DNA from: an uncultured Halobacteriales archaeon
Lineage (GTDB): Archaea > Thermoplasmatota > E2 > JACPAO01 > JAHFTW01
Reading direction: 5' to 3'
NCBI GenBank assembly: GCA_964643795.1
Contig: CAZXUC010000018.1
Span: 2,238 to 66,237, forward strand
DNA length: 64,000 nt
This document shows positions 16,099 to 61,073 of the stretch, one piece after another; positions within the stretch are counted from its first letter, which is position 1, and the number at the start of each line of letters is the position of its first letter. The translations under genes and the position numbers were made by a program. The notes beneath the pieces are model-generated. The model had not been told where the DNA came from. It did not search any database and worked only from the letters and a program-made list of their open reading frames with translations.

Positions 16099-18396
16099 CT
16101 AGGCCAGCCGTCGGCGAACCAACAAGCCGACCGCAAGGGCGGCCAAGAGGGCGACAACGCCGAGGCCCGGCGTATTCTCCCCAGTCGTGTCGCCAGAGAT
16201 CGGGGCCGGCTGCGTGGGCGCGGGCGTCGTCGGGGCGGGCGGCGTGGGGGTGGGCTCCACGGTCGGCGTGGGCTCGACGGGCGGCGCCGGCGGTGCGGGG
16301 GGCGCGATGTCTGCCGGCAGATTCCCAAAGAGGCGTACGCTGTAGCGCGGCACCGCCACGGGAGCTGCTCCCACGGCGAAGTAGGCCGAGTCTGTCGGCG
16401 TGAAGGAGCCACTCTGGTCTGCGTCGTAGTAGCGCAGCGACATGCCCGCCGCAGGGAAGGCCGTCACGGCGTTGCGGTACGCGACGAAGTCCGCGTCGGA
16501 GGCGAAGGCCAAGGACCCGGCCGGGTAGTCGCCGACGGGGGTGAGCCGCAGCGTCCAACTGGTCGGGGAGGTGGTCGGAAGTAGCGCCGTCGCTCCGACG
16601 CCGGCCACGACGTAGACGTCGTCGCCCGCCTTGTACTTCCCGTCGTTGTTGCGGTCGCTCCACATGAGCGTGTATCCCCCCGTGTCGGTGAGGACGGTGA
16701 CGGCCCCCTGGCGCAGGGCGACGTCGCCGTCGGAGACGAGTTCACCAGGCGACTTGCCGTTGCAGTTCGAGAGCAAGATGTCGAAGTTGGAGACGATGCC
16801 GGCGCTGATCGTGCTGTCCATGTCGGCAATCAGGCAGTCGTCCGTGGCTTCGGATCCGCCCAGGGCCACCCAGAGCAGGTCGTCCGTCACGAGGATGCCG
16901 GTCGACACGAGGGTAGGGCGGAAGTCGGCGTCGCCCAGTTTGACCTGGACGCCGGCCTTGGCCGGCTCTTGGACCCGGAGCGAGGAGGGGGGCAGGGTGG
17001 TGCCAGCGGCGGCGACGCCGCCCACGACGACGTACCACTTGGCCCCGTCGTACTCCTCGATCTCGGCCGACATCGCGGGCGTGAAGGCCAGGAGAGCGTT
17101 CTTGTAGGCGAGGTAGTCCAGGTCCGTCGCGAAGACGAACGAACCAGCCGGGCCACTTGCCGTCGGCGTCAAGCGGATGGTGAACGCGTCGATCCCAGTC
17201 GTGGCGGGCATGTTGGGCGCCGCCATGGCGGTTCCGGCGGCCATCTGGCCCATGTAGACGTAGTCGCCTGCGTCGTAGCGTCCGTTGTTGTTGACGTCGG
17301 CGAAGAGGAGGTCAACAATCTCCTGGACCGGGGTGGGCGCCTTCTCGATCACGTCGGTGTCAATGATCTTGGTCCCCGGAGCGCCTCCTGGGCCGGTCGT
17401 GATGCGGATGTCGTCGAAGTCGAGGGTGCCCGCCGAGTTCGTGCCCTTGACGTTGAAGAAGAACAAGTCGTCCGTGACGGGCGTGTCGCCAAGCGGCACG
17501 CGCCAGATGATGTCTGCGGCGGTACCCCCGGACAACGGCTTGCCTGCGCCCTTGGATGTCGGGACGAAGTCAGTTGCGCCACTGTTGACGCGGGAACCGA
17601 ACGTGTCGGTCTTGGACAAGCGCAGCGCGTAGCGGGGCGCGAAGACGTTGGCTGCAAAGCCGTCGGCGGCGGTGAAGGCACCATCCCCGTTTGAGGTCTT
17701 GAACATGAGGTAGACGCCGGTGCCCTCGAAGGCGACTGAGAACGCGAAAGGGATGCCTGGAGGCGCGCCGGGGTCGACGGCGGTAATGTCGTTTCCAAGC
17801 ACGACCACGGCGGTCTGGTAGGCTTGGTAGTCCGCGTCCGCGGGGTACGCGAAACTGCCGGCTGGGCCGGCGTCGCTCGACGTCAACCGGATCGTCCACG
17901 AGGCGAGGCCGGTGGTGGGCATGAGGACTGTCGTCCCCGTCCCGGACACGAGGAAGACTGGGTCCTTGTCCTTGAATTTCCCGTCGTGGTCCGCGTCGCC
18001 GTAGACGACGGTGGCGGCAGCCGCCAAGGCGGCGACCTTGATGCTCGAGTCCGAGTCGGACACTAGGTCGCCCGGCTTGCGGGTCTGGTACGGAGTGAGG
18101 AAGATGTCCTCGTTGTCCACGGTGTTGACGAGCGCGCCGCCGACGTTGATGCCCTTCATGTCGATGAAAAACACGTTGTCGGCCACTTCGCCGCTGACGC
18201 CGAGGTCGACCTGCAGCACCTTGAGGTGGTGGTTGTCGTCCACGTTGTCCACGCCGGCGGTCACGCCGTACGCTTTCTTGGAGAGGGGGGCGAAGTCGGC
18301 TTCCTTGTCAACTTGGCTTCCGAATTCGGCTTGTGCTAGCGGACCGGCCAAGAGGAGGGCCGCCAACAGAATTGTTCGCAAATGGATTGTTCGCAT
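16099..18396 (-). CDS. Large surface glycoprotein-like protein with four repeated DxNxDG modules and a PGF-CTERM-like anchor. Paralog of the neighbouring gene.
   Basis: Signal peptide. Repeats DADHDGKFKDKDPVF, DVNNNGRYDAGDYVYM, DRNNDGKYKAGDDVYV. C-terminus PGLGVVALLAALAVGLLVRRRLA. Confidence 0.85.
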   Translation of the reverse strand: MRTIHLRTILLAALLLAGPLAQAEFGSQVDKEADFAPLSKKAYGVTAGVDNVDDNHHLKVLQVDLGVSGEVADNVFFIDMKGINVGGALVNTVDNEDIFLTPYQTRKPGDLVSDSDSSIKVAALAAAATVVYGDADHDGKFKDKDPVFLVSGTGTTVLMPTTGLASWTIRLTSSDAGPAGSFAYPADADYQAYQTAVVVLGNDITAVDPGAPPGIPFAFSVAFEGTGVYLMFKTSNGDGAFTAADGFAANVFAPRYALRLSKTDTFGSRVNSGATDFVPTSKGAGKPLSGGTAADIIWRVPLGDTPVTDDLFFFNVKGTNSAGTLDFDDIRITTGPGGAPGTKIIDTDVIEKAPTPVQEIVDLLFADVNNNGRYDAGDYVYMGQMAAGTAMAAPNMPATTGIDAFTIRLTPTASGPAGSFVFATDLDYLAYKNALLAFTPAMSAEIEEYDGAKWYVVVGGVAAAGTTLPPSSLRVQEPAKAGVQVKLGDADFRPTLVSTGILVTDDLLWVALGGSEATDDCLIADMDSTISAGIVSNFDILLSNCNGKSPGELVSDGDVALRQGAVTVLTDTGGYTLMWSDRNNDGKYKAGDDVYVVAGVGATALLPTTSPTSWTLRLTPVGDYPAGSLAFASDADFVAYRNAVTAFPAAGMSLRYYDADQSGSFTPTDSAYFAVGAAPVAVPRYSVRLFGNLPADIAPPAPPAPPVEPTPTVEPTPTPPAPTTPAPTQPAPISGDTTGENTPGLGVVALLAALAVGLLVRRRLA

Positions 18397-18560
18397 GGGT
18401 TGTCCCGCACGGCCATCCCAGGCGTCCCGTCCTAGCCTCGACGCATTGCAAGTATTGTCGGCTCACGAGAAGACGTGGCACTATTGTGGAACTAGTGGAC
18501 CAGGCCGGGCACCAGGCACCCACGCCGGGCAGACAAGCATGAATCTCGTTAGCGCCGAAC

Positions 18561-29006: not shown

Positions 29007-30605
29007 CTACTGCCGCAGCGCCCGCACGTCGTCGAGGATGGTCCGCACCGCCATCTCTTGCACGTTGCGCATCGCGGCGTCGACTTTGTAGCCGAGGATG
29101 TCCTGGCCGCGCAGCAACCCACTGAGGCGCTTGCGGTTGTAGTCCAACGCCTCCGTTGGAACCACTTGGTCAAGGATTCCGGCCGCGTCGGCGAGACCGA
29201 GGAGCAAAATCGTTGCGGCGTCCGGTGTGCCGCCGCCCGCGATGGCTCGCCGGAGGCGGTTGCGTAAGCGCTCCTGCGCGGTCGGATTCGTGACGGCGAA
29301 CGTCGAGCGGCGGAAGATGCCCATGTGCTTCCATTCGCGGGCCTCGGCGAGTCCTTTGCCGACGAGGCTTGCTTTACTGGCTCGGATGAGTCCGGGCAGT
29401 TCGCTGCCAAGGCTCTTCATCGCATCGCGGCTCGTCGTGTCCTTCATGACGCTCAACTTGTTGAGAAGCGGCGCTAGGCGGGGCGTTCCGTTGCCTTGCA
29501 CGATGAAGCGGTCGCGCTGCACCTGAAGGGCGCCGTGGTGGACGGCTTCGAGGAGAAGCGCACCAAGGAGCGCGCCGCCGACGCCGCCGGACGCCACTTT
29601 TTCGCCGCGCTCATCCCAGATTCCTTCCGCGGCGAGCAGGAGGAATGCTTCGGGGATCGGTTGCTCCGAACTGGATTTCGTCGCCTCTTCGTCGTGGACC
29701 TGAACCATCGAACCGTTGTCGCCCGAGTCGGCATCGGCGTCGGGTGAACGCCCGCGACCCTTGCGCGAGGTCCCGTCGTCATCGCGCGCGTCGGGGGCAG
29801 CATCAAGTGAGTCTAGGACGACCGGCTTGGCGCGCCGCTTCTCCAGTTCAGCGACCCAGTCGGTATTCTTGCCGGCGGCCGCGGCCTGCGTCTTCTTTGC
29901 GGGCTCGCCTTTCTTGGCCGTCTCCTTCGCGATTTCCGGCTCGAGTTTGCGGCGGTGGCCATTGGTGGGAGCGGGCTTCACTGCGACGGCCGGCTCGGAC
30001 GGCACGACTTCCGGTTCCGCTGGAGGGGAGTCTACCTCGATTGTGTTGGCGGCCTTGCCATGCAGCGCGGGTTCAGGTTTCGCGTCGACGACTGGCTTGG
30101 CCTTGGCTTGCTTGGCTGCCGCCTTCTTCGCCGCCTTTGCAGCCTTTGCCTCGGTCTTGCGCAGTTTCTTGGCGGCCTTCTCGTGCGACGCCTTCAGTTT
30201 CTTCGCCGCCTTTGCCTCCGCTGCGAGCTTCTTCTTGGCGGCCTTTGCTTCAGTCGCCTTGAGTTGCTTGGCGGCCTTGGCGTTCGTCGCCTTGTGCTTC
30301 TCGGCTGCGGCCGCGTCCACGGCCTTGTGCGCCTGCGCGGCATGGGCGTCGGTGTCCTTGTGCGCCTGCACCGGATCCGAGGATTTCGCATGGGCAGGCT
30401 TCGCCTTGGCGGCCTTGGCTTTCGCCTTCGTCGCCTTCGGGCTCGAACTCTGCTTGGCGGCTTTGGCCGGTTTGGCGGCCTTCGCGGGCTTGTGCGCTTT
30501 CGGCTCCGTTTTCGCAGCCAGGTGGGGTTTGGCCTTGGCCTTGGCGTCCTTCTTCGCGGCTTCCGCCTTCTGCTTCATCGCTGCCTTCTGGGTGCGCGTC
30601 GCCAT
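29007..30605 (-). CDS. Lys/Ala-rich (histone-H1-like) N-terminal region fused to a C-terminal GPP34/GOLPH3-like domain.
   Basis: About 200 aa of KAAK/AKAK repeats. The C-terminal segment LLLAAEGIWDERGEKVASGGVGGALLGALLLE... resembles GPP34 (PF05719). Confidence 0.75.
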   Translation of the reverse strand: MATRTQKAAMKQKAEAAKKDAKAKAKPHLAAKTEPKAHKPAKAAKPAKAAKQSSSPKATKAKAKAAKAKPAHAKSSDPVQAHKDTDAHAAQAHKAVDAAAAEKHKATNAKAAKQLKATEAKAAKKKLAAEAKAAKKLKASHEKAAKKLRKTEAKAAKAAKKAAAKQAKAKPVVDAKPEPALHGKAANTIEVDSPPAEPEVVPSEPAVAVKPAPTNGHRRKLEPEIAKETAKKGEPAKKTQAAAAGKNTDWVAELEKRRAKPVVLDSLDAAPDARDDDGTSRKGRGRSPDADADSGDNGSMVQVHDEEATKSSSEQPIPEAFLLLAAEGIWDERGEKVASGGVGGALLGALLLEAVHHGALQVQRDRFIVQGNGTPRLAPLLNKLSVMKDTTSRDAMKSLGSELPGLIRASKASLVGKGLAEAREWKHMGIFRRSTFAVTNPTAQERLRNRLRRAIAGGGTPDAATILLLGLADAAGILDQVVPTEALDYNRKRLSGLLRGQDILGYKVDAAMRNVQEMAVRTILDDVRALRQ

Positions 30606-30693
30606 GGGAGTCCCTATGGTCCCGGCGAGGCAGGGTTAGGAAGAAGAGCCCTTCGCTCGAGCGGCAATCCGCTCGACCGATTGGTCGGCCTTC

Positions 30694-30833: not shown

Positions 30834-31535
30834 TCACGCGGCCGCGAGCTTGCCAAGCAAGTCTTCCGGCCGCTCCAGCACCCAATCTGCCTCGGGCGGG
30901 ACGGGTGCGCCAGGCTTACCGTACGACGCCCACGCCGTGCGCATGCCGACCGCCTTCGCCCCGGCCATATCTTTCTCGGGCCAGTCGCCGACCATGAGGA
31001 TGGACGCCGGTGGAATGCCGAGCAGGTCGACGGCGGCGCGGAAGGGCTTCTCGTGCGGCTTGCGTTCGCCTGAATCCGTGAACGTGACGACGAACTCGAA
31101 GAAATCGACGAGCCCGGCGGCGTCGAGGCGCTGGTAGCCTTTGAGGCGGGGTGCATCCGTCACGACGCCCATGCGTATGCCGCGGCGGGAAAGTTGGATG
31201 AGCGTGCGGCGGACTCCCGCGTACGGCTCAGTGTGCAGCGTCTTCGTCTTGAGGTAGGCGTTGACGGCGGCGGCAGTGATGCGGTCAACGTGATGCTGAC
31301 TCAACCCGATCTTCTGCTGGTGGTGCTTCGTGAGGAACTGCGAAAAGACGGCGTCGCCCTCGATGTCCTGCAAGTATTCGCCGAAGAGGATGTCGCCGGC
31401 CTCGTCGGAGTTGAACGGAAACAGGGCGCCGGCTTGGATCATGGCGCGGGCGGCGGCGTCGGAGGCGGTGCGCTTCATGCGCAGAAAATCGACGAGAGTG
31501 TTGTCGAGGTCCCATAGCACTGCCTGGATGTTCAC
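30834..31535 (-). CDS. HAD-IA family hydrolase.
   Basis: Motif I VLWDLDNTL. GTG start at 31535 inside ORF 30834..32000. Upstream in-frame region looks non-coding. Confidence 0.8.
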   Translation of the reverse strand: MNIQAVLWDLDNTLVDFLRMKRTASDAAARAMIQAGALFPFNSDEAGDILFGEYLQDIEGDAVFSQFLTKHHQQKIGLSQHHVDRITAAAVNAYLKTKTLHTEPYAGVRRTLIQLSRRGIRMGVVTDAPRLKGYQRLDAAGLVDFFEFVVTFTDSGERKPHEKPFRAAVDLLGIPPASILMVGDWPEKDMAGAKAVGMRTAWASYGKPGAPVPPEADWVLERPEDLLGKLAAA

Positions 31536-32165
31536 GCGCTGCCATGATGCAGGCGGTTCAAGGCGTTGGCGACGACGTGATTCAAGGCGCTGGCGACGAA
31601 GTGGTGGCCAGCTCCGCCCCCGGCCGGCGGCAGGGGAGGCGGCGTGGTGGGCGCCTGCGTCCTTCCCGCCATGATGCAAGTGATTCCCGCAAGCAAGGCC
31701 AGCAAGTGGCGGCTTGCCAATTCGACCGCGTACTCGGCCTTGCTGACGTCGCCGTAGGAGGTCTTGGACGTGCAAGGGTCGCCCGCAACTGAACATCAGG
31801 CTGATGCAGCCGCCGAGCGCCGTGAACGCCCCCGCCCAAGCAATCACCGCTTGGCGGACCAAGATGCCGATTGCCGCCACGGCCATGAGTCCAAGCAAGA
31901 CGAAGGGCGGCGGGTAATGCTTCTGCGAGCACGTCGTCTCGGTGGGAGGGCGCGTAACGTCACCCGTACGCCGCACTCGCTCGATGCCGCCGGATCCCAA
32001 CGATCACGACGAGCCGCGGAATCCGCGGAGCCTGTCCGCGTATTCGACAGGCGCAAAAGGAAAAACTCGTTCAAGCCGCAATGTCGACGAAAATCGCCGC
32101 TTCTGCGTCGAGATTCTCCTTGGTTTCCTGTGGAAAATGGTCAAAAAGGCATTTCCCGGACAGGC

Positions 32166-48576: not shown

Positions 48577-49638
48577 TCAGACCAAGCGGAGGAAGTCATC
48601 GACCGCCGCGCCGGGGCCGGCCACTTTCTTGGAGGGCATTTGCTGGCTCAAGCAGTGGATGGCACCCATCCCCCAGACTAAGTCTTGGCAAGGCAGCTTA
48701 ACGACGGGGCGGTCCTTGAAGCACTGCTGCAATCGTCGTTGCGCGATGTCGTCGGTCGGGCTTGCGAAGGTCGGCATGAGGACGGCGCCGTTCGTGATGA
48801 GGAAGTTGCCGTGGCTCGCTGGCAGGACGTTGCCTTCGTTATCGATCAGGTCCTTCGGCATCGGCAGTTCCACGATGCGAATCGACCGGTTGTGGGCGTC
48901 GGTCATGTGGCTCAACCGATGTCGGTTCTCGGCGAGGGGCTCGTAGTTGGGGTGAGCTCGGTCCTCTTCGACGCACGTGACGACGAGGCGGGGACCAACG
49001 AAGCGCGTGATGTCATCGACGTGGCCATCCGTATCGTCGCCTGCGATGCCGTCCGCGAGCCACAGGACTTTCTCGACGCCGAGGTATTCGCGCAAGTGCC
49101 TCTCGATGTCGGGCCGCGTCATGTCGTGGTTGCGGTTCTTGTTGAGCAGGCATTGTTCCGTGGTGATGAGTGTTCCTTGGCCGTCGACGTCGACGGAGCC
49201 GCCCTCCAGGACCATCTTGACGGCTGAGAGCGGGGAGCCGATTGCGTCGCCCAGTTGGTCGATGACCTTCTTGTCGCGCAAGAGTGATTCGTACTTGTTG
49301 CCCCACGCGTTGAATTCGAAGCGGACGACGATGCGGTCGCGCGTTCCCGGTTGCTTGCCGGGGCGAACGAGATAGATGGGGCCGTAATCGCGGATCCACG
49401 AGTCCTGATGGTTGACGGCGTGGAACTTGACGTTCTTGATTCCCTCGGCCTTGACGGCCTTGCTTGCGGCGGCTTCGAGGTCGGGGTGGACGACGAGGTC
49501 GACGCGTTGGTGCGGCGTGATTGCCTTCATCGCTGCTAGGAATGTTGCGCGCGCCAACGCAACGCGGTCCGGCCACGTCACTGGGTCGCGGGGCCAGACG
49601 AGCCAGACGGATTCCTGCGGCTCCCATTCGGCTGGCAT
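48577..49638 (-). CDS. aguA: Agmatine deiminase.
   Basis: MPAEWEPQESVWLVWP N-terminus. Catalytic-Cys C-terminal region (GAIHC). ATG at 49638 in ORF 48577..49704. Confidence 0.9.
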   Translation of the reverse strand: MPAEWEPQESVWLVWPRDPVTWPDRVALARATFLAAMKAITPHQRVDLVVHPDLEAAASKAVKAEGIKNVKFHAVNHQDSWIRDYGPIYLVRPGKQPGTRDRIVVRFEFNAWGNKYESLLRDKKVIDQLGDAIGSPLSAVKMVLEGGSVDVDGQGTLITTEQCLLNKNRNHDMTRPDIERHLREYLGVEKVLWLADGIAGDDTDGHVDDITRFVGPRLVVTCVEEDRAHPNYEPLAENRHRLSHMTDAHNRSIRIVELPMPKDLIDNEGNVLPASHGNFLITNGAVLMPTFASPTDDIAQRRLQQCFKDRPVVKLPCQDLVWGMGAIHCLSQQMPSKKVAGPGAAVDDFLRLV

Positions 49639-49799
49639 GCGGTAGCCCTGCTCGCGCGGGGTCGGAACGGGGCCGCGCAGCGACATGTGCACGGCAGCCT
49701 TCACGCGGGCACGATTGGCGCTTGCGACTTAACGGCGCCGCAACCCGCCCCCGCCCGGACCACCTGCCCACGCACCGCACCGGGCGCTTGCGGCCGTGA

Positions 49800-52416: not shown

Positions 52417-53919
52417 GTGAGCGGCAGGACACGGAGGCACCGGGAGCCGGAGGCCCCGCAACCCTTCCGGCCACGCCGCGGCATCGACCTCGCGCTCCTG
52501 GGCATCCTGCTCGTCGGCATTCTCCTGCGCCTGCCGCACGCCACGGACGAGGACGGCTACTTCAAGGACTACGCCGACGAGGCGACCTACTTCACTACCG
52601 GCTACGCGCACTACCGCGGCGGCCCCGATTTCCCCTTGCCCCATGGTGGGTCAGGCCTGCCGCTCGCGCTCGAGTTCGTGCTGTGGGTCTCGGGCGTCCC
52701 AGGCGGCGACCCCGTGCCACAGCCCCATGCCGACGCAAGCTACCAGCTGACCCCGGACCAGGTGCACGCCGCACACCTCGCCTACGCCATGACCTTGGGC
52801 TTCAACCTCCTCTTCATCCTGGGCGTCTTCGCTTTGGCGGCCGGCTTGCTGGGGCGCGACAACCCTTGGTCGCTCCTGCCGCCTGCCCTCGTGGCCGTGG
52901 CGCCATACCAAGTGACGTCTAACATGCGCTTCCTCTCGGAGCCGCTGTACGCGGCCTTGGTCTGCTTCGCCATCGTGTTCGTCCTCAAGGCGAAGAAGGA
53001 TCTGGCCTACCTGTACGCCGCCGCCTTGTGCATGGCCGGTGCCCACCTGCTGCGCGTGACCGGCCTCTTCCTCATGGCCGCCCTCGCCTTGTTCGCCTGG
53101 TTCTTCCTGCGCAACCCGTACGCCACGCGGCAGAAGCACCATTGGCACGTGCTGGGATCCGTCGCCGTCTTCTTCCTGGTCTGCACGCCTTACCTGGACT
53201 GGCGCGCGGAATCGCTGCCCGGCCCCTTCGACTACGGGGTGAACGGCCGCTATTGGACCGACAACCAGTGGGATTTCTCGGACCAGTACTGGCAGACCTA
53301 CACGCCCAAGACCGGGGGCGAGAAGGAGACCATGTCCGACTACTTCGAGTCGCACAGCGTCGGCCATGCCGCCGAACGCCTGTGGCATAGCCTGTGGTGG
53401 CCCCTGCGCGACACCTTCAGCCTAAGCCCGGGATCGGAGCCCGACAAAGTCTTCTCAGGCCTGGAGACCGCGGCGGTCGCTGCGGCCTTCGGGTGGGGGC
53501 TGAGCAGGGGAAGCATCCCCGCCGGGCAGCGGTGGCTCTCGTTGACCATGTTCCTGAGCACCAACCTTCCCGTCGTCTGGGTCTACCCGACGGCCATCAA
53601 CCCGCGTTTCTTCCTGCTCCTGGCACCTATCGCCTTCGTGGTGGTCGCCGGCCAGGTCCAGGCCATCCCGCGGCCCCGCCTGCGCCTTGCCGTGGGCCTT
53701 GCGCTCCCGCTCGCCGTGCTCGGCGTGTACACGCTGCGGGTCGCGATGCCCGGCCCGGCGGTCGCCCATTGGCTTACCATGGGAGGGTGGGCGCTGTTCT
53801 GGGGCTCGTGGCCCGTCCTTGCCTGGGGCATCCTGCGCGGCCGCACGCACTGGATGGCCCGCAAGCTGCCGCCCCCGGGGCAACCGGCGGGCGCAGTCCC
53901 CGAAGCGACCGTGGCGTAA
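52417..53919 (+). CDS. GT39/GT-C family glycosyltransferase (ArnT/PMT-like multi-TM protein).
   Basis: About 500 aa, polytopic. GTG at 52417 preceded by the AT-rich aaagctgatatcctat. Paralog of 57783..59360. Confidence 0.75.
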   Translation: MSGRTRRHREPEAPQPFRPRRGIDLALLGILLVGILLRLPHATDEDGYFKDYADEATYFTTGYAHYRGGPDFPLPHGGSGLPLALEFVLWVSGVPGGDPVPQPHADASYQLTPDQVHAAHLAYAMTLGFNLLFILGVFALAAGLLGRDNPWSLLPPALVAVAPYQVTSNMRFLSEPLYAALVCFAIVFVLKAKKDLAYLYAAALCMAGAHLLRVTGLFLMAALALFAWFFLRNPYATRQKHHWHVLGSVAVFFLVCTPYLDWRAESLPGPFDYGVNGRYWTDNQWDFSDQYWQTYTPKTGGEKETMSDYFESHSVGHAAERLWHSLWWPLRDTFSLSPGSEPDKVFSGLETAAVAAAFGWGLSRGSIPAGQRWLSLTMFLSTNLPVVWVYPTAINPRFFLLLAPIAFVVVAGQVQAIPRPRLRLAVGLALPLAVLGVYTLRVAMPGPAVAHWLTMGGWALFWGSWPVLAWGILRGRTHWMARKLPPPGQPAGAVPEATVA

Positions 53920-54029
53920 CGCCCCGGCGTGTTCTGGCTCGCACCATTATTTCCCCTGGACCACTCGAAGGGCTGGGTGCACTGAATGAAGGTCTTCGAG
54001 TCCGAGCTGCGTGGCGGCGTCTTCGTGCG

Positions 54030-54275
54030 GCCGTGCTGACATGCGCGCCCAACGCGCGCGACGAGCGCCAAGCCGCCTACGAAGAATTCGGGGCCCACAT
54101 CTGGAAAACCGTCCTTGACGACGTTGAATTCCCCGACTTCGACGACAAACTCACCTACCTCCAAAACGGCCGCGGCGACTGGACCCGATGCGTCCTGCAC
54201 CCCGGCATGTCCGCCACCAACAACCCCGCCGAACAAGCCCTACGGGAACACGTCACAGCTACACGGATTGAATCC
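54030..54275 (+). mobile_element. IS66-family transposase C-terminal remnant.
   Basis: In-frame segment ...DWTRCVLHPGMSATNNPAEQALREHV... carries the NNxAExALR motif of IS66 TnpC. No DDE core and no IRs. Confidence 0.5.
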
Positions 54276-54356
54276 CCAAAGGCAAAGAGGGCGACCTTTG
54301 TCGGTGCGCACGTGCCCCGACCCGCCAAGCGTCCCGCGCAGGAGGCCGAACGTCCC

Positions 54357-55439
54357 GTGCAGGCCAACGGCCCCACCGCGGGCGGCAAGGACCTCACGAA
54401 GCCGGCGTTCCGTTCCTACCTTGTCACGGGGGGTGCCGGCTTCCTCGGCCAAGCCATCGTCCCCCGCTTGCTGGCTGGCGGGGCGCGCGTGCGCGTGCTC
54501 GACACCGCGCGCATCCCGTCCGAGTGGGAAGGGCAGGTCGAGGGCATCATCGGCGACATCCGGGACGCGGCCGCGGTCGAGGCGGCCGCCGCCGGCATGG
54601 AGTGCGTCCTGCACGGCGCCGCCGCCTTGCCCATCCACCGTTCGGCCAAACTGATCCACGGCGTCAACGTCGACGGGACGAGGAACCTGCTCGATGCCGC
54701 CGTGCGGCATCGCGCGAAATCATTCGTCTTCGTCTCCTCGACGGCCGTGTACGGCCTGCACAAGGAGCACCCCATCACGGAGGAGAACCGCATGATTCCC
54801 GTGGGACCATACGGCGAATCCAAGGTCAAGGCGGAACTCGTGTGCCAGTCCTTCCGCGACCGCCTGCACGTCGCCATCGTCCGGCCGAAGACGTTCCTCG
54901 GCCAAGGCCGCCTCGGCGTCTTCGAGATCCTCTTCGACTGGATCCATGACGGCAAGCGCATCCCCATGATCGGCAAGGGGCACAACAAGTACCAGCTCCT
55001 GGACGTCGAGGACCTCGTCGATGCCATACTCATCACCAGCGCCCACCCCAAGGGCTCCGACACGTTCAACGTCGCCGCGAACGAGTTCGGCACGTTGCGC
55101 GAGGACCTGACCCCCCTGTTCAAGGCCGCAGGGCATGAGCCACGGTTTTTGCCGACGCCGCGCCGCACCACCATCAGCGCCCTCTGGGTCCTGGACAAGC
55201 TGCGCCTCAGCCCGCTCACGAAGTGGCACTACGGCACGATGTCGAGCGACTCCTACGTCGAGACCGACAAGGCGCAACGCATTCTCGGCTGGACCCCCAA
55301 GCGCAGCAACCAGGACACCCTGCTCGCCGCCTACACGTGGTACCACGCGCACCGCGATGAAGTCAAGGCCCAAGTCGGCACGACGCACACCGTGCCCTGG
55401 AACCAGAAGATCCTGAAAGTGTTCAAGCGTCTGGCCTGA
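54357..55439 (+). CDS. NAD-dependent epimerase/dehydratase (SDR family).
   Basis: GGAGFLG Rossmann motif and YxxxK (YGESK). GTG at 54357 with GGAGG 12 nt upstream. The N-terminal part of ORF 53394..55439 is the IS remnant. Confidence 0.85.
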   Translation: MQANGPTAGGKDLTKPAFRSYLVTGGAGFLGQAIVPRLLAGGARVRVLDTARIPSEWEGQVEGIIGDIRDAAAVEAAAAGMECVLHGAAALPIHRSAKLIHGVNVDGTRNLLDAAVRHRAKSFVFVSSTAVYGLHKEHPITEENRMIPVGPYGESKVKAELVCQSFRDRLHVAIVRPKTFLGQGRLGVFEILFDWIHDGKRIPMIGKGHNKYQLLDVEDLVDAILITSAHPKGSDTFNVAANEFGTLREDLTPLFKAAGHEPRFLPTPRRTTISALWVLDKLRLSPLTKWHYGTMSSDSYVETDKAQRILGWTPKRSNQDTLLAAYTWYHAHRDEVKAQVGTTHTVPWNQKILKVFKRLA

Positions 55440-55620
55440 CCCCACGGACCTTGAGGCCAGGCGCGGCTGAATCAGCTCAATTGCAGGGAGACACGCAAAA
55501 CGTGTCCTTGCAATTGAGAGATTCAACCGTCTGCCCCCAAGATTTTCTGCTCAATCCGAGGCCCCCAACCGTTCGCCAACCAATGCAAAACCATGAAGGG
55601 CGCCAGGCCGTGGCCAATGT

Positions 55621-56610
55621 GTGCGTGACGAGCTTAGCGTCCAGGAGGCAGTACAGCCCCCGCGCCGACGTGTCAAGGCATCAGCCGTCCTCGCCGCCGT
55701 CGCCGTCGTCGTGCTCGCCGTCGCCCTGTGGCGCAGCGACCCCCGCGCCGCCGCCCGCGAGCTGGTTCGGGTCCCCCTTGGCCACATCGGCCTCGTCGTG
55801 GTCCTCGTCCTCGTCGCGTACGCCTTGCGCTTCGCCAAGTGGCACCTGTTCCTGCGCCGCCTCGGCACAGAGGTCCCTTTGGGGCGCAGTGCGGCCATCT
55901 TCACAAGCGGCCTCCTCATGGTCGTCACGCCCGCCAAGGTCGGCGAGGTGTGGAAGGCCCTCGCACTGAAGGAAACGGACGGCATCCCTGTCGCGCGCGG
56001 CCTGGGCGCCGTCGCCCTCGAACGGCTGACGGACCTTGCCGCCGTGGGCGCCCTCGCGCTTCTTGGCGCCGCCGCCCTGGGGCTTGCCCCCTGGCTCGCA
56101 GCGGGGGCCATGCTGGCCTTCACCGCCGGGGTCCTTCTCCTGCGCTGGCGCCGCCCTTGGCTCGCCCTCCTCGCGCGCCTCGAGGCCAGGCACCCCGGCT
56201 CGCGGCCCGTCGCGTTCCTGCATGCGCTCTACCTAGACACTGCGAGCCTGCTGTCCTGGTCAACCCTCGGCATCGGCGCGGTGCTTGGGCTGGTCGCGTG
56301 GGCGCTGGAGGGCCTTGCCTTGTGGGTCATCCTCGACGGCCTCGGCGTCGATGCGTCCCCCGTCTGGGCGATCGGGGTGTTCTCGGTTGGCACGCTCGCG
56401 GGCGGCCTCAGCGTCCTGCCCGGGGGCGTCGGCACCGCGGAGGCGGGGATGATCGCGCTCCTCGTCGCTGGCGGCGTCGCCTCATCGACGGCGTTCGCCG
56501 CGACGCTCCTTGTGCGCGTGCTCACGCTGGGTTTCGGGGCGACGTTGGGTGGCGTATGCTATGGCTTGTGGTCATGGCGGCGCCGCGTGGCCCTGGTTCC
56601 CTCCGCGTAA
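55621..56610 (+). CDS. Lysylphosphatidylglycerol-synthase-TM / flippase-like membrane protein (UPF0104-like).
   Basis: About 8 TM segments. Pattern typical of PF03706 proteins that accompany GT clusters. Confidence 0.65.
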   Translation: MRDELSVQEAVQPPRRRVKASAVLAAVAVVVLAVALWRSDPRAAARELVRVPLGHIGLVVVLVLVAYALRFAKWHLFLRRLGTEVPLGRSAAIFTSGLLMVVTPAKVGEVWKALALKETDGIPVARGLGAVALERLTDLAAVGALALLGAAALGLAPWLAAGAMLAFTAGVLLLRWRRPWLALLARLEARHPGSRPVAFLHALYLDTASLLSWSTLGIGAVLGLVAWALEGLALWVILDGLGVDASPVWAIGVFSVGTLAGGLSVLPGGVGTAEAGMIALLVAGGVASSTAFAATLLVRVLTLGFGATLGGVCYGLWSWRRRVALVPSA

Positions 56611-56677
56611 GGGCACGGTCGCGGTGGCGGCCCCCCACATGCGCGCCATGTCACGGAATCGCGGGGAGGACGCAAAT

Positions 56678-57547
56678 CTAGCCGAGGGCATGCAGCCACT
56701 CGTATCCCGCCTGCGGCCACCCCGCCTTCACGGCCACAATCATGGCAAGCCACAGCACCGCGTTGACGACGGTCGCGCGGTCCTTGAACACCATCTCCGC
56801 CTCATCGCCGAGGTCGCGGCGGTGCACGAGCCACGAGTAGCGGAAGACGCCGTAGATGGCGAAGGGGATGGTGAACATCATCCACGCGTCGGTGCCGAAG
56901 AAGGTGTACAGGCTGTACGCCATCAAGAGCAGCGTCGTGCTGGTCTGCATGGCCTGCTCGACGAACGGCACCGTGTATGCGCCCAGGCTGGGGCGGCTCT
57001 CGAGCGCCTTGGGGTCGTCCTGGACCAGCAGGAGCTCGTGGCGCCGCTTGGCCAGCGCGAGGTAGAGGGCGAAGAGGAACGTGCAGACGATGAGCCACTC
57101 CGTAGAGGGAACGTCGATGGCCGCGGAGCCCGCCAAGGCGCGCACGACGAAGCCGATAGCCACGGCGATGGCATCCCACAGGACGAGGCGTTTGAGCAAG
57201 CCATTGTACAGCACTTGCAGCAGCAGGTAGGCCATGCCGAGCACGATGGAGAGCGGGCCGAGCCACCACAACGCGGCGAGGGCAGCGACGGCGAGAAGCA
57301 AGCAGAGGGCGACGCCGGTGGCGGGTGAGACCTTGCCGGACGCGATGGGGCGCGCCTTCTTGCGCGGATGCATGCGGTCGCGGTCGGCATCGACGACGTC
57401 GTTGGCCGCGTACACCGACGCGGACAGCGCGCAGAACGCAGCGAAGCAGAGGAGGATCGGCGGCCAGAGCGTCGTGTTGCTGGCGTTGCCGGAGAACAGG
57501 AGGGGAATGAAGACGACGAGGTTCTTGTACCACTGGCGGGGCCGCAT
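56678..57547 (-). CDS. UbiA-family prenyltransferase, DPPR-synthase-like (decaprenyl-phosphate phosphoribosyltransferase).
   Basis: QWYKN..., ANDVVDADRDRMHPRKKARPIASG Asp-rich motifs. ATG at 57547 in ORF 56678..57955. Confidence 0.8.
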   Translation of the reverse strand: MRPRQWYKNLVVFIPLLFSGNASNTTLWPPILLCFAAFCALSASVYAANDVVDADRDRMHPRKKARPIASGKVSPATGVALCLLLAVAALAALWWLGPLSIVLGMAYLLLQVLYNGLLKRLVLWDAIAVAIGFVVRALAGSAAIDVPSTEWLIVCTFLFALYLALAKRRHELLLVQDDPKALESRPSLGAYTVPFVEQAMQTSTTLLLMAYSLYTFFGTDAWMMFTIPFAIYGVFRYSWLVHRRDLGDEAEMVFKDRATVVNAVLWLAMIVAVKAGWPQAGYEWLHALG

Positions 57548-57782
57548 CAGGCGCAGCAACGGAGGCAGGCCGCTCAACGACGCTCCAGCGGCGGCGCGTT
57601 TGAAAGGCTGACTGGTCGCGCGCTGACCATGCCGTTCTCCCGTGAAGCGTCTACAAGGGGTCCGATTGCGCCGGGCGCGGGGGCCGGTTGGAAGCCGCTT
57701 GACGCGGGTAGCTTCTTGATGGCCTCCATGGCGTCGTGGATGGCCTTGGGCCGCGGAGGCCCGCGCGGACAGCGACAGGCTC

Positions 57783-59360
57783 ATGATTGTCGCGCCGGAT
57801 GGCCTCGCGTTGGGACGCAAACGCGCCGCCGAGCGCCGCATCGAGGAGCCCGAAGGCTGGGCGCAGCGCCTGCTCCGGCCGCACATCCTCGGCCTGGGCT
57901 TGGTCCTCCTCCTAGCCGCCGCGATGCGGTTGTGGGGACTGGGCCGCGAGAGCATCTGGTGGGACGAGGCCTACTCGATCGCGTGGTCGCAGCACGACCT
58001 GGGCTGGCTGCTCGACTACCTCCGGACCTCGGACGTCCACCCGCCGGCCTACTACGCCGTGCTGCACGGCTGGGTCGTGGCGCTCGGGCCGGGCGTCGCC
58101 GAGACGCGCCTGCTCTCGGCCCTCCTCGGCCTGGCCGGAATCGCCGCGGCGTACCTCTTGGGCCGCGACATGTTCCGGCCCCGCGTCGGCGTGCTCTTCG
58201 CGCTCTTCGTGGCGGTGTCCGAGTTCCACCTGTACTACTCGCAGGAAGTCCGCAGCTACATCATGCTGTTCGCGGCCTCGGTGGTCTCCATGCACGCGTA
58301 CTGGCAGCTCTTCCACCGCCCGGACGCGCCGCGCCTGGGGTGGCGGTTCGCCTACTACGTGGCGGCCACGACGCTCCTCCTCTACACCCACTTCACCGGC
58401 GTGTTCGTCGTGGTGGCGCAGGTCGCCCACCGAGCCATCATCCTCGCCAACGCGCCCGACCGGAAGGCGTTCCTCCTGTGGGCGGCCAGCCAGGCCCTGG
58501 TCGCCGCGCTGTTCCTGCCGTGGTTCCTCGTGCTGCTGGAGCAGGCGGCCCGCGTCGAGCAGGGGTTCTGGATCCCGAAGCCGACGCTGGCGGCGGGGCA
58601 GCGGCCGCCGGACTTCTCGGTTGGAGGGACCTTCCGGCAGTTCACCGGCGGCGGCCCGCGGGCCTGGGTCGCGTGGCTGCTGGTGGGCAACGGGCTCGCG
58701 GCCTCCACGCTTGCCACCCTGAACCGCGAGCGCAACCCGGACGACTCCGAGTCGCACCGGCCGTACCCGGCCGCCAAGGTGCTGCTCCTGGTGGCGTGGC
58801 TGCTCTGCAGCGTCCTCCTCCCGTTCTTCCAGTCGATGTTGTCCCAGCCCATCTACCTGAGCCGCATCGTCATCCCGGCGCTGGCGCCGCTGTGGCTGCT
58901 GGCGGCCGTGGGCGTGGCACGGCTGCGGCTGCCGGCAGCGCAGACGGTCGCCGCTGGACTCGTGGTCGCCTTGGCGGTGCCCGGCCTGGCCGACTACTAC
59001 ACGACGGACGCCAAGGAGCGCTGGGACCTCGTGGTGGCCGCGGTGGAGGAGGGCGCCGCGCCCAATGCCACAGTCGTGCTCGTCGGCAACGCCGGGAACC
59101 CGTGGGCCGTGTACGCCGAGCGGCCGGACCTCCGCACCGTGCGCGCCGGGACGGCGCAGGAGGTCGCGAACCAGACCGCCGGCGAATCCGACGTCTGGCT
59201 GGTCTCGCGCCAGGATCCCGCCTGCGGCCAGCCGAGCCCCCTCGTGTCCGCCCTCGGGCAGGGGCGCCGTCTCGTCTCGTGCGAGCAGTACATGGCGCAG
59301 GGGCTGCGCGACTTCCCGTTGGCGGCCAACCCCCTGTACGTCCACCATTTCTCCGCGTGA
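57783..59360 (+). CDS. GT39/GT-C family glycosyltransferase, second copy.
   Basis: RLWGLGRESIWWDEAYS motif. Polytopic N-terminus and soluble C-terminal domain. Confidence 0.85.
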   Translation: MIVAPDGLALGRKRAAERRIEEPEGWAQRLLRPHILGLGLVLLLAAAMRLWGLGRESIWWDEAYSIAWSQHDLGWLLDYLRTSDVHPPAYYAVLHGWVVALGPGVAETRLLSALLGLAGIAAAYLLGRDMFRPRVGVLFALFVAVSEFHLYYSQEVRSYIMLFAASVVSMHAYWQLFHRPDAPRLGWRFAYYVAATTLLLYTHFTGVFVVVAQVAHRAIILANAPDRKAFLLWAASQALVAALFLPWFLVLLEQAARVEQGFWIPKPTLAAGQRPPDFSVGGTFRQFTGGGPRAWVAWLLVGNGLAASTLATLNRERNPDDSESHRPYPAAKVLLLVAWLLCSVLLPFFQSMLSQPIYLSRIVIPALAPLWLLAAVGVARLRLPAAQTVAAGLVVALAVPGLADYYTTDAKERWDLVVAAVEEGAAPNATVVLVGNAGNPWAVYAERPDLRTVRAGTAQEVANQTAGESDVWLVSRQDPACGQPSPLVSALGQGRRLVSCEQYMAQGLRDFPLAANPLYVHHFSA

Positions 59361-59370
59361 TGGGGCCAAA

Positions 59371-59589
59371 TCAGTGGCTGCCGGCGACCTTGGGGAACTG
59401 CCACGCCTTCCATTGCCCCTTTTTGCATTGATCGACCATCTGCCAGAACTGGTCGAAAAAGTGGCCGGAGTCCCATGGCCCGGGGCTGGCCTCGGGGTGG
59501 TACTGCATCGTGAAGATGGGGAGGCTCTCGTGCCGGACGGCTTCGACGACGCCGGAATCAAGACGTCGCTGAAGGCGGCGCGCAAACAC
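59371..59589 (-). pseudogene. carA: C-terminal fragment of a carbamoyl-phosphate synthase small subunit (GATase) gene.
   Basis: [21 protein letters not shown] matches the CarA C-terminus. No upstream N-terminal body. Confidence 0.55.
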
Positions 59590-59648
59590 AACTCGTGCTC
59601 GAGGTCGTCGTTGATGCGGTCACAGTCCGCGTCCGTGGAGCCCGTGCA

Positions 59649-59722
59649 TTGCCGGAAGAGGAAGAATTGGCGGCGTGGGTGAAGCGCTGCCAGACGTTCG
59701 CGCGGACCTTGCCTGCGAAGTG
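59649..59722 (+). pseudogene. Duplicated 3' fragment of the tfoX gene (last 24 codons).
   Basis: LPEEEELAAWVKRCQTFARTLPAK* against TfoX LPEEEELLAWVQRCQNFARTLPAK*. About 80% nucleotide identity to 51781-51852. Confidence 0.55.
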
Positions 59723-59731
59723 AAGAACACC

Positions 59732-60172
59732 CTACGTCACGACAATCTGGATTGGCTGGCTCCACACCTCGACGCCATCGACAAGGGCGCGGGCACGCAG
59801 CCAAAACGTGCCGGGCGTCCTCAACACGATTAGGTCGTTCTTGGTGCACCCGAGGTGCCGCTGATTACCGTCCGGGCTAGTGCACGGTTCGGGCGTGGAA
59901 AGCGACGTGGGTGCCGTCGAGATGTAGTAGTGTTCGAGGGTGGCCGGCTCAGCGTCGCCGGGCGTGGCCCAGACGGCCGTGTGGGTAGCATTTGCGAATC
60001 CCCCGTGATGCCCAAGTGTTCCATGGCGAGCGATTTCGTAGCTCACGCTGAACTGTTGACCTGCCTCCACTTGTTCTGGGTAATCCAGCCAGGCGATGGT
60101 TGCCACAGGGGCCTCAGTAAGGCAGCCGGACCCCAGCACGATGGCGACGACGAGCAACAAGACCACACGCAT
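59732..60172 (-). CDS. Lipoprotein, 146 aa.
   Basis: MRVVLLLVVAIVLGSGC lipobox. Shares the PGTF[WY]LRA...W motif with 62851..63705. Confidence 0.55.
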   Translation of the reverse strand: MRVVLLLVVAIVLGSGCLTEAPVATIAWLDYPEQVEAGQQFSVSYEIARHGTLGHHGGFANATHTAVWATPGDAEPATLEHYYISTAPTSLSTPEPCTSPDGNQRHLGCTKNDLIVLRTPGTFWLRARALVDGVEVWSQPIQIVVT

Positions 60173-60212
60173 GTAACACGCGAGCCGGCCCGATGCCCAA
60201 GTATGTTGGGGT

Positions 60213-61073
60213 TCAATCGTCGAGGTACCGCTGCACAAGTCCCTGGTACGCGTCGATGCGTCGGTCGCGGAAGAACGGCCAACCGCGGCGGGCCTTCTCG
60301 ATTTCGGCCATGTCAAGTTCGACGACCATGACTTCCTCCTTCTCGCCCGCTTCGGCCGCCACGATCCCCATGGGCTTCGCGACGAAACTGTGGCCCCAGA
60401 ATTCGAGTTCGCCCTCCTTGCCGACGCGGTTGACGGCCACGACGAAGCACCCGTTGGCAACGGCGTGGCTGCGTTGGATGGTGTGCCAAGCCTGGTGCTG
60501 CGTCTCCTTGTATTCCATCTCGCCCGTCCAGGTTCCGATTGCCGTCGGATAGAACAGGATGTCCGCTCCCTGCAGGGCCGTGAGTCGGGCCGCTTCCGGG
60601 TACCATTGGTCCCAGCACACTAGGGTGCCAATGCGGCCAAACTTCGTGTCGAAGACCTTGAAGCCCAAGTCGCCGGGCGCGAAGTAGAATTTCTCGTAGA
60701 AGCGCGGGTCGTCGGGGATGTGCATCTTGCGGTACTTGCCGAGGTACTTCCCATCCGCATCGAGGACGGCGGCCGTGTTGTGATACAGGCCTTTTGCGCG
60801 GCGCTCGAAGATGGAGCCGACGATGACGATGCCGTGTTGCTTCGCCTTCTGCGCGAGGGCTTCCGTGGTGGGTCCGGGGATTTCTTCAGCGAGGTCGAAG
60901 AACGCCGCGTCCTCTTCTTGGCAGAAATACGTGGAGGAGAAGAGTTCCTGCGTGCACACGACTTGCGCGCCCTTGTTGGCGGCTTGGTCGATGAGCGTGA
61001 GCTGGCGAGCCAGGTTCTCCTTCGGGTCGTCCGAGGCGTGGGTCTGGATGAGTCCGACCTTGAGCTTCGTCAT
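60213..61073 (-). CDS. aguB: N-carbamoylputrescine amidase (carbon-nitrogen hydrolase).
   Basis: CN-hydrolase Glu-Lys-Cys triad context (VCWDQWYPE). Length and sequence typical of AguB. Confidence 0.9.
   Translation of the reverse strand: MTKLKVGLIQTHASDDPKENLARQLTLIDQAANKGAQVVCTQELFSSTYFCQEEDAAFFDLAEEIPGPTTEALAQKAKQHGIVIVGSIFERRAKGLYHNTAAVLDADGKYLGKYRKMHIPDDPRFYEKFYFAPGDLGFKVFDTKFGRIGTLVCWDQWYPEAARLTALQGADILFYPTAIGTWTGEMEYKETQHQAWHTIQRSHAVANGCFVVAVNRVGKEGELEFWGHSFVAKPMGIVAAEAGEKEEVMVVELDMAEIEKARRGWPFFRDRRIDAYQGLVQRYLDD

Follow-up and report, generated by a model that had tools for sequence, protein, structure and literature searches.

A stretch of 64,000 nucleotides from an uncultured Halobacteriales archaeon (GenBank assembly GCA_964643795.1, contig CAZXUC010000018.1, positions 2,238 to 66,237; hereafter, the window) carries at 52417-59360 a gene for a UbiA-type membrane transferase, together with genes for a short-chain dehydrogenase/reductase (SDR), a flippase-like membrane protein and two putative GT-C glycosyltransferases, here named G1 and G5. 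We consider it probable that the SDR, the flippase-like protein and UbiA form the core of an archaeal version of a polyprenyl-phosphate-pentofuranose donor pathway. The settings in which lipid-linked pentofuranose glycosylation is known so far are mycobacterial arabinan synthesis, Pseudomonas pilin glycosylation and enterobacterial O antigens. The proposal draws on the likeness of UbiA to the mycobacterial phosphoribosyltransferase Rv3806c and on the recurrence of the same partners beside this UbiA family in distant lineages.

Coding frames were picked by third-position GC content (GC3) and checked with profile searches against Pfam and NCBIfam. The choice of frame needed GC3 because the high G+C content of the window (~64%) yields many overlapping open reading frames (ORFs). 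By these means, all five gene types named in the initial annotation were located within 52417-59360. The nearest homologues of the window proteins bear the NCBI name uncultured Thermoplasmatota archaeon, and two of the window proteins recur, identical, on an NCBI contig and in the Logan assembly of run SRR6868923. Throughout, L-numbers denote comparison loci and P-numbers homologous proteins.

A UbiA protein of the predicted DPPR synthase type

The UbiA gene (56678-57577, minus strand, TTG start) encodes 299 amino acids (aa) with no extra domain. Its best NCBIfam models were the equivalogs for decaprenyl-phosphate phosphoribosyltransferase (DPPR synthase, DPPRS), at 213.9, 186.9 and 134.8 bits, and a UbiA-family model aligned in its C-terminal part with 168 bits. 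The models for heme O synthase, 4-hydroxybenzoate prenyltransferase, digeranylgeranylglyceryl phosphate (DGGGP) synthase, MqnP and chlorophyll synthase gave 60 bits or less, and the DPPRS models lead any other prenyltransferase family by more than 150 bits. When all PDB sequences were searched, the only matches at E<=0.01 were two Rv3806c entries (8j8j, E=2e-31).

In the HMMER alignment to 8j8j, read against the published contacts (PMC10994848), 11 of the 13 Rv3806c residues that touch phosphoribosyl pyrophosphate (PRPP) or decaprenyl phosphate are identical, namely the counterparts of R22, K28, Y70, N73, D77, K87, R90, Q135, Y138, K143 and K191. The deviations are Y157 to F and K208 to P, and the change of Tyr157 to Phe has also been reported in some mycobacteria (PMC10994848). 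Taken by function, the contacts to phosphoribose and its 5'-phosphate (Lys28, Tyr70, Gln135) and those of the pyrophosphate cluster (Arg22, Lys87, Arg90, Lys143, Tyr138) are identical in eight cases out of eight, and the positions Lys28, Tyr70 and Gln135 are not conserved in ordinary UbiA prenyltransferases (PMC10994848). The NDxxDxxxD motif, which includes the Mg2+ ligands Asn73 and Asp77, is present as NDVVDADRD at aa 59-67 and aligns to NDVRDVEAD of Rv3806c.

By sequence, the protein is a homologue of the DPPR-synthase-type polyprenyl-phosphate phosphoribosyltransferases, as the initial annotation had it, and not a DGGGP synthase, heme O synthase or quinone prenyltransferase; a grouping with those enzymes, named at the outset as the outcome that would speak against the assignment, appeared neither in the NCBIfam scores nor in the PDB search. 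Close homologues are called 'UbiA prenyltransferase family protein' at NCBI and 4-hydroxybenzoate polyprenyltransferase at JGI, the generic NCBI name arising because the top scores fall just under the curated cut-offs.

The SDR and the flippase-like protein

The SDR gene (54312-55439, plus strand) encodes a 375-aa, NAD-dependent, GalE-like protein. It matched PF01370 with 129 bits and 3Beta_HSD with 86 bits, adh_short was absent among the matches and KR stayed below threshold; its best NCBIfam profile matches are generic. The motifs TGGAGFLG (aa 39-46), SSTAVYG (aa 142-148) and YGESK (aa 167-171) were recognized, and among solved structures the closest is that of a promiscuous GDP-sugar 4-epimerase (8rdg, E=3.5e-21). 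These features place the protein in the extended GalE-like type and not among the classical SDRs of ~250 aa such as DprE2. The analogy to DprE1/DprE2 that had been drawn initially was thus abandoned, as the FAD oxidase check among the 48 window ORFs scanned with Pfam was also negative. We propose that the SDR is the epimerase of a lipid-linked ribose. Two other assignments were considered and rejected. A 4,6-dehydratase or decarboxylase typically would show an acid pair after the catalytic Ser/Thr (Asp-Glu in 4,6-dehydratases), which is missing here (SSTAV), and a match to HpnA reached 101.8 bits against a cut-off of 367.

The flippase-like protein (55621-56610, plus strand, 329 aa) is of the MprF type (LPG_synthase_TM/UPF0104). 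It scored 152.6 bits with PF03706 against a cut-off of 33.4, covering profile positions 6-302 of 302, and 91.1 bits with TIGR00374 against 43.2; the NCBIfam matches were MprF and the flippase of glucosaminyl phosphatidylglycerol (GlcN-PG). By its profile matches it is a clear PF03706 member, and it is proposed as the candidate flippase for a lipid-linked pentose. For archaea, a role as glycosylation flippase has been predicted for the UPF0104/arCOG00899 family (Makarova et al. 2015, PMC5898192), and the flippase domain of MprF and the C-terminal domain of archaeal AglD belong to the same Pfam family. In contrast to MprF and AglD, the window protein stands alone, with no fusion to a synthase or GT2 domain, and its partner is a UbiA phosphoribosyltransferase, a protein that is not mentioned in PMC5898192.

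Recurrence of the core genes across archaea and in bacteria

Conservation was surveyed with one genome per GTDB species, giving 80 loci with this UbiA family, whose neighboring ORFs were clustered and searched directly with tblastn. They come from Thermoplasmatota, Methanobacteriaceae, Methanosarcinales, Methanomicrobiales, Methanothrix, Methanoperedens, Thermococcus, bins of Aenigmatarchaeota and Nanohalarchaeota, and a few bacteria. In 56 of the 80 loci, UbiA has a flippase-like gene no more than a few kb away; the corresponding counts of neighbors are 55 for a DUF362 protein, 50 for a PHP-family phosphoesterase, 21 for a PMT_2-type GT-C (median gap of 0 bp) and eight for an SDR of the window's family (>=35% identity). 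SDR and DUF362 were found together in none of them (0/80). UbiA plus flippase-like protein is a pair still more common than UbiA plus SDR.

Among Thermoplasmatota, synteny joins SDR and UbiA, usually together with the flippase-like gene. In the nearest relatives there (UbiA 52-89% identical), the conserved gene order is variable GT-C genes, UbiA, flippase-like gene, a gene for a protein of ~1100 aa and SDR, with the SDR orthologues near UbiA 59-88% identical to that of the window. The ~1100-aa protein is a membrane protein with a weakly GT87-like N-terminus and a GH99/WbsX-like C-terminus. Compared with the orthologues of L001, the ratio of nonsynonymous to synonymous substitution rates (dN/dS) is 0.08 for UbiA, 0.13 for the SDR and 0.14 for the flippase-like gene. 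Since all three values (0.08-0.14) correspond to purifying selection, selection maintains the core genes.

At greater distance, homologues of UbiA and of the SDR (the latter 43-45% identical) occur in all four Natrialbaceae megaplasmids found, those of Halostagnicola larsenii XH-48, Haloterrigena sp. KLK7 and two Natronococcus strains. The annotated regions of Halostagnicola and Haloterrigena carry GT-C and SDR genes on one strand and UbiA, PHP and flippase-like genes on the other, the most complete form of the cluster (L087 5945-11514, plasmid HALLA_RS14970-14990; L088 4658-11576). UbiA, SDR and flippase-like protein of the window are 45%, 44% and 41% identical to the haloarchaeal ones. The loci that NCBI annotates as 'decaprenyl-phosphate phosphoribosyltransferase' (Halostagnicola larsenii XH-48, Methanobacterium spp.) share orthologous UbiA, flippase-like and, in haloarchaea, SDR proteins with the window (41-45%) and have a GT-C gene adjacent; unlike the window, they carry a PHP phosphoesterase gene directly after UbiA. 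Our literature searches found no experimental study of these annotated loci. In each of two Aenigmatarchaeota, a pair of extended SDR genes comes after UbiA on the same strand, and the second SDR belongs to the window's family (38-39% identity). Among bacteria, the symbiotic plasmid of Sinorhizobium fredii NGR234 encodes an SDR of the family (38-40%) close to a UbiA-family prenyltransferase. An SMR transporter, a second SDR and a GMC oxidoreductase belong to the same cluster, for which the literature on noeCHOP gave no clarification. In Streptomyces sp. SAT1, an SDR of the family (38-39%) adjoins UbiA, accompanied by an LPG-synthase-domain protein and an EEP-family phosphatase, and in Nonomuraea it likewise adjoins UbiA. 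UbiA and SDR thus make up a module found repeatedly in archaea and bacteria alike. The co-conservation of UbiA with the SDR and the flippase-like protein that was anticipated initially holds across archaeal phyla, and for the SDR pairing in bacteria too. The expectation that such a system would be unusual in archaea does not stand, given homologous UbiA loci in Methanobacteriaceae, Methanosarcinales, Methanomicrobiales, Thermococcus, Halobacteria, Aenigmatarchaeota and others.

The extended SDRs found with this UbiA family fall into two distinct families, and both are present in Aenigmatarchaeota and on the NGR234 symbiotic plasmid (L084 10001-12957; L085 10001-13007; L089 6854-14919); the window holds just one of the two. 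A pair of SDRs could mean two epimerizations, or an oxidation and a reduction split between the proteins. In most other archaea, UbiA lies beside a PHP phosphatase and a DUF362 protein rather than an SDR; methanogens and many other archaea thereby differ from the window in having DUF362 in place of the SDR. Clusters of UbiA, PHP, flippase-like and DUF362 genes were seen in methanogens, Thermococcus, some Thermoplasmata and a few bacteria (L016-L082; e.g., L064 10001-14500, L057 975-2102). The DUF362 partner is highly conserved, 56-80% identical across phyla. The Pfam clan of DUF362 also contains the N-terminal domain of the LarA racemase (PMC11770544), so that this protein may be an alternative epimerase.

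These distributions bear on the possibility that the neighborhood is coincidental, with UbiA an ordinary lipid, quinone or heme prenyltransferase and the SDR a nucleotide-sugar epimerase or dehydratase serving an unrelated glycosylation. The UbiA scores under the equivalog cut-offs, the generic NCBI and JGI names and the generic SDR profile matches would agree with this, but the Rv3806c-specific residues for binding phosphoribose and pyrophosphate are retained, models of other prenyltransferases remain at 60 bits or less with no other UbiA structure at E<=0.01, and the same SDR family travels with the UbiA family in at least six distant archaeal and bacterial lineages. We regard coincidence as very improbable.

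GT-C-fold candidates G1 and G5

G1 (52417-53919, plus strand, GTG start) encodes a membrane glycosyltransferase candidate of 500 aa, whose 5' end was set by the rise in GC3 together with the start codon. It has no Pfam match of its own; its homologue P0209 (50% identity) exceeds the Pfam PMT threshold. The family is rare, with 54 relatives among 1.84 billion representative proteins, and D54 in the motif YADEATYF is invariant in the family alignment. P0209, the sole close homologue, lies in an unrelated context with no UbiA gene near it on its contig. G5 (57783-59360, plus strand, 525 aa), divergent from UbiA in orientation, scored 17.9 bits with PMT_2 against a cut-off of 26.1, and D61 and E62 (WWDEAY) are invariant in its family alignment. 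Fold searches with the AlphaFold models of G1 and G5 (pLDDT, the predicted local distance difference test, of 87.8 and 91.7) ranked Pmt4 first. The other matches of G1 included AglB, ArnT, AftB and Emb and those of G5 ArnT, AglB, STT3, AftA and Emb, with ALG9/12 also among the folds recovered. On the strength of these models, both proteins are predicted GT-C-fold enzymes with a conserved Asp, or Asp-Glu, in loop 1 (the first outer loop). The initial description of them as two GT39 proteins was loosely worded: neither protein reaches a GT39 Pfam threshold, and homologues of both exceed it (PMT/PMT_2).

The history of G5 can be partly read from its surroundings. Its homologue P0124 (57%) is encoded between carB and carA at a locus without UbiA, and next to G5 lies a truncated 3' part of carA, the gene for the small subunit of carbamoyl-phosphate synthase (59374-59571, minus strand). 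This remnant, detected by tblastn, comprises the last 66 codons and is 79% identical to residues 320-385 of the Thermoplasmatota carA in L005. As the DNA similarity to the carB/GT-C/carA locus (57889-59554 against L005 10104-11788) spans both G5 and the remnant, the two were relocated as one block, and G5 is judged from this similarity to be a recent arrival. G5 shares 32% identity with the product of a GT39-annotated gene from the UbiA cluster of Haloterrigena. The tie of G1 and G5 to the core module is weak, and they are candidates by adjacency and fold only; the co-conservation of GT-C genes with UbiA that had been expected was not seen for them, with no homologues of either in the UbiA loci of the relatives examined.

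With G1 and G5 so loosely attached, the core module could instead make a finished membrane lipid and no donor, the GT-C genes being bystanders. UbiA would then phosphoribosylate a phosphomonoester lipid, for instance archaetidic acid or a polyprenyl phosphate, the SDR would remodel the head group and the MprF-type protein would flip the lipid outward. Characterized LPG_synthase_TM proteins do flip modified glycerophospholipids (lysyl-phosphatidylglycerol in the case of MprF), the NCBIfam matches of the window protein are of this kind, G1 and G5 are not co-conserved with UbiA, and many UbiA loci have no recognizable GT-C within 10 kb. However, a GT-C gene is close to UbiA in the 21 loci mentioned above, it adjoins the SDR on the haloarchaeal megaplasmids, and in most of the window's clade the large GT87-like protein is encoded between the flippase-like gene and the SDR. 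In addition, all characterized UbiA-type phosphoribosyltransferases supply GT-C donors (PMC11127046, PMC10994848). A membrane lipid as the end product therefore seems unlikely to us.

A rearranged locus

In this genome, the locus has become a mosaic, rearranged and incomplete, with a probable IS66 remnant, the carA fragment and the loss of the ~1100-aa GT-C. Between G1 and the SDR, a probable remnant of an IS66-family transposase of ~390 bp (53922-54311, plus strand) was recognized from a weak match to Pfam DDE_Tnp_IS66 (E=0.024, profile positions 221-268 of 284) and the motif TNNPAEQALR, which together are weak evidence. The remnant is in frame with the downstream SDR, which is why a raw ORF of 681 aa (53394-55439) is inflated. 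This ORF is an artefact, its 5' part overlapping G1 out of frame and its middle reading through the IS66-like stretch, and the real gene is 54312-55439 only. Owing to the same stretch, the automatic gene call in L004 made the SDR 468 aa long. On the other side of the SDR, the window DNA is 82-84% identical to L007 over the SDR, flippase-like and UbiA genes, on both sides of a gap where the 3.8-kb gene for the ~1100-aa protein (L007 12047-15857) is replaced by a spacer of 181 bp (55440-55620). The SDR/flippase spacer contains a 17-bp inverted repeat (55476-55518, no strand assigned), with a single occurrence in the window and positioned where close relatives carry the ~1100-aa gene, which may be a terminator or a deletion scar.

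The genes for agmatine deiminase (aguA, 48577-49704, minus strand) and N-carbamoylputrescine amidase (aguB, 60213-61073, minus strand), consecutive steps of putrescine synthesis, bracket a segment of ~10.5 kb with an S8 protease, a TfoX_N protein and the glycosylation genes. The G+C content of this segment exceeds that of the flanks, with 0.66-0.70 versus 0.63 just downstream, which suggests an insertion between two formerly adjacent genes; the stretch from the S8 protease to G5 fits a rearranged island.

Such a structure raises the question of whether the locus is a decaying remnant that has lost its cognate GT-C, never had a linked phosphatase and yields no glycan. The IS66-like remnant and carA fragment, the deletion relative to L007 with conserved DNA on either side and the raised GC content between aguA and aguB all point in this direction. 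Yet UbiA, SDR and flippase-like genes are full length and under the purifying selection described above, and an independent assembly from a sequencing run (L004) yielded the identical arrangement. Moreover, the GT-C that uses the donor need not be linked, many separate genes encoding the mycobacterial arabinosyltransferases for which decaprenyl-phosphoryl-arabinose (DPA) is the donor, and the window represents 64 kb of the genome. We hold decay to be quite improbable, and keep to the donor pathway as the probable function of the core.

Elsewhere in the window, a 787-aa secreted protein (16099-18462, minus strand) has a GEVED domain match, a Thr/Pro-rich C-terminal linker and a PGF-CTERM-like tail (TGENTPGLGVVALLAALAVGLLVRRRLA). 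It is a plausible glycoprotein substrate, and the only PGF-CTERM-like protein found; lying 34 kb away, it does not agree with the neighboring PGF-CTERM proteins of the initial annotation. A gene at 29010-30635 (minus strand) gave a match to the GPP34 (Golgi phosphoprotein 3) domain with 72 bits, a domain that we did not expect in an archaeon. Flanked by the carA remnant and aguB is a small ORF (~59732-60150, minus strand) with a lipoprotein-like signal sequence (…VLGSGC…); a small GtrA-like gene was sought in 59361-60212, and only the carA remnant and this ORF were found there. The tRNA and Rfam scans of the window returned a single tRNA-Leu, distant from the cluster.

Comparison with known pentofuranose pathways

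The components of the known pathways were searched for in the window. Among the 48 ORFs scanned with Pfam, there was no DprE1-type (FAD_binding_4) oxidase, PAP2 phosphatase, GtrA/SMR or MATE protein, and tblastn over the whole window gave nothing at E<0.1 for PHP, DUF362, three GT-C clusters or the ~1100-aa protein of relatives. The nearest HAD gene (30837-32003) is 20 kb from the cluster. A dedicated MATE or SMR/GtrA-type flippase was not found in the cluster, where the LPG_synthase_TM protein occupies the equivalent place.

In mycobacteria, the DPA pathway (Rv3806c, Rv3807c, DprE1/DprE2, Rv3789, Emb/Aft) starts with an enzyme homologous to the window UbiA (11 of 13 contacts shared) and likewise has a lipid-linked pentose made inside and used by GT-C enzymes outside. 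In contrast to it, the window has one extended SDR in place of a DprE1 FAD oxidase and a classical-SDR DprE2, has no PAP2 or GtrA/SMR protein, and its GT-C proteins share only the fold with Emb/Aft. Of the DPA-like logic proposed initially, the DPPRS-type UbiA and the co-conserved SDR and flippase-like protein were retained, and the DprE epimerization and the link to GT-C genes were not.

In the bacterial three-component pathway, a UbiA-type synthase makes undecaprenyl-phosphate-ribofuranose from PRPP, a transporter is proposed to flip this donor and a GT-C enzyme adds the sugar to a glycan outside the cell (Kelly et al. 2024, PMC11127046). In Citrobacter youngae O2, a single GalE-like SDR, ORF13, changes the added sugar from ribofuranose to xylofuranose in a system of PPPRS, flippase and GT-C, and homologues of DprE1/DprE2 accompany the arabinofuranose systems (PMC11127046). 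The logic of a UbiA-type synthase, a membrane transporter and an external GT-C would be shared between C. youngae O1/O2 and the window. Compared by class and motifs, the SDR of C. youngae O2 is of the same enzyme class as that of the window, which shows both hallmarks of the GalE-like auxiliary epimerase (TGxxGxxG and YxxxK). The two systems differ in the host, archaeal here, and in the carrier, presumably dolichyl phosphate in the archaeon. The proposed flippase of the three-component system is of the MATE or SMR/GtrA type, whereas the window candidate is an MprF-type UPF0104 protein, and the HAD phosphoribose-phosphatase domain or phosphatase gene found in its loci has no counterpart in or beside the cluster. 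The GT-C of the three-component system belongs to GT136; for G1 and G5, the predicted assignment is to the GT-C fold. As the SDR is GalE-like and the window has no homologue of DprE1, PAP2, PHP or GtrA, the known system nearest to this locus is not the mycobacterial DPA route but the three-component pentofuranose pathway of bacteria, in the variant with an auxiliary GalE-like epimerase.

A proposed route and its weak points

The homologies and the co-conservation described above lead to a route in which each catalytic step is a prediction. UbiA would move 5-phosphoribose from PRPP to a polyprenyl phosphate, in an archaeon presumably dolichyl phosphate, at the cytoplasmic face of the membrane; for this step, the argument from homology is strong. 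The 5'-phosphate would be removed by an unlinked phosphatase, a component missing here; in most other archaeal loci a PHP protein is encoded beside UbiA and is there the obvious candidate. With its bound NAD, the SDR may then oxidize and re-reduce one ring hydroxyl of the lipid-phosphate-ribofuranose, giving arabinofuranose if C2 is the target or xylofuranose if it is C3. The MprF-type protein would move the lipid-linked pentose to the outer face, and GT-C enzymes could pass the pentose to a surface glycan or protein. The last step is the weakest, especially if assigned to G1 and G5.

Several observations weigh against this route. The UbiA scores are below the equivalog cut-offs (NF008977, 213.9 versus 234; NF008978, 186.9 versus 207), and the function proposed for the archaeal members is drawn from homology. 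Characterized LPG_synthase_TM members flip glycerophospholipids and not polyprenyl-phosphate sugars, and we know of no report of a pentofuranose in any archaeal surface glycan. No linked phosphatase was detected, PHP being absent by tblastn window-wide and PAP2 and HAD by Pfam in or beside the cluster. The five genes do not form a single operon: at least three transcription units are present, with G1, SDR and flippase-like gene on the plus strand, UbiA on the minus strand and G5 on the plus strand again, which is a correction to the initial annotation. The ~1100-aa GT-C gene kept by most of the clade is absent from the window, as searched by tblastn over its whole length. Finally, the nearest homologues of G1 and G5 lie in unrelated contexts, and tblastn with both against the UbiA loci of close relatives gave nothing better than E=0.08; therefore, the GT-C complement varies between genomes.

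A possible wider archaeal pathway

From the survey, a broader proposal can be put forward, to which we give somewhat less than even credence: that archaea widely use a dolichyl-phosphate-pentofuranose donor pathway built on Rv3806c-type UbiA, with a stand-alone MprF-type UPF0104 protein as the flippase and the sugar set by an interchangeable SDR or DUF362 protein. As part of this same proposal, the SDR route would be that of the window, the haloarchaea and Aenigmatarchaeota, and the DUF362 route (a relative of the LarA nickel-pincer racemase) that of methanogens and Thermococcus. The enzyme family itself is already known in archaea at the level of annotation, through the NCBI labels on methanogen and haloarchaeal homologues, and our literature searches brought up no studies of Rv3806c homologues or of pentofuranose GT-C systems in archaea. 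The elements that seem new are the architecture of the archaeal module, the MprF-type flippase candidate, the single-SDR solution and the mutually exclusive DUF362 alternative.

Being rearranged and incomplete, the window copy is not the best model. Experiments would be easier to begin in cultured haloarchaea such as Halostagnicola larsenii XH-48 and Haloterrigena sp. KLK7, for which no Thermoplasmatota culture is necessary. To our knowledge, flippases for polyprenyl-phosphate monosaccharides are still poorly defined, and the reading proposed here, if true, would nominate an MprF-type protein for this role, as well as a single SDR, or elsewhere a DUF362 protein, as the epimerase of lipid-linked ribose. 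It would also extend lipid-linked pentofuranose glycosylation from bacteria to archaea and predict sugars as yet unreported in archaeal envelopes. If the pathway is indeed widely used, arabino- or xylofuranose would await discovery in archaeal surface glycans.

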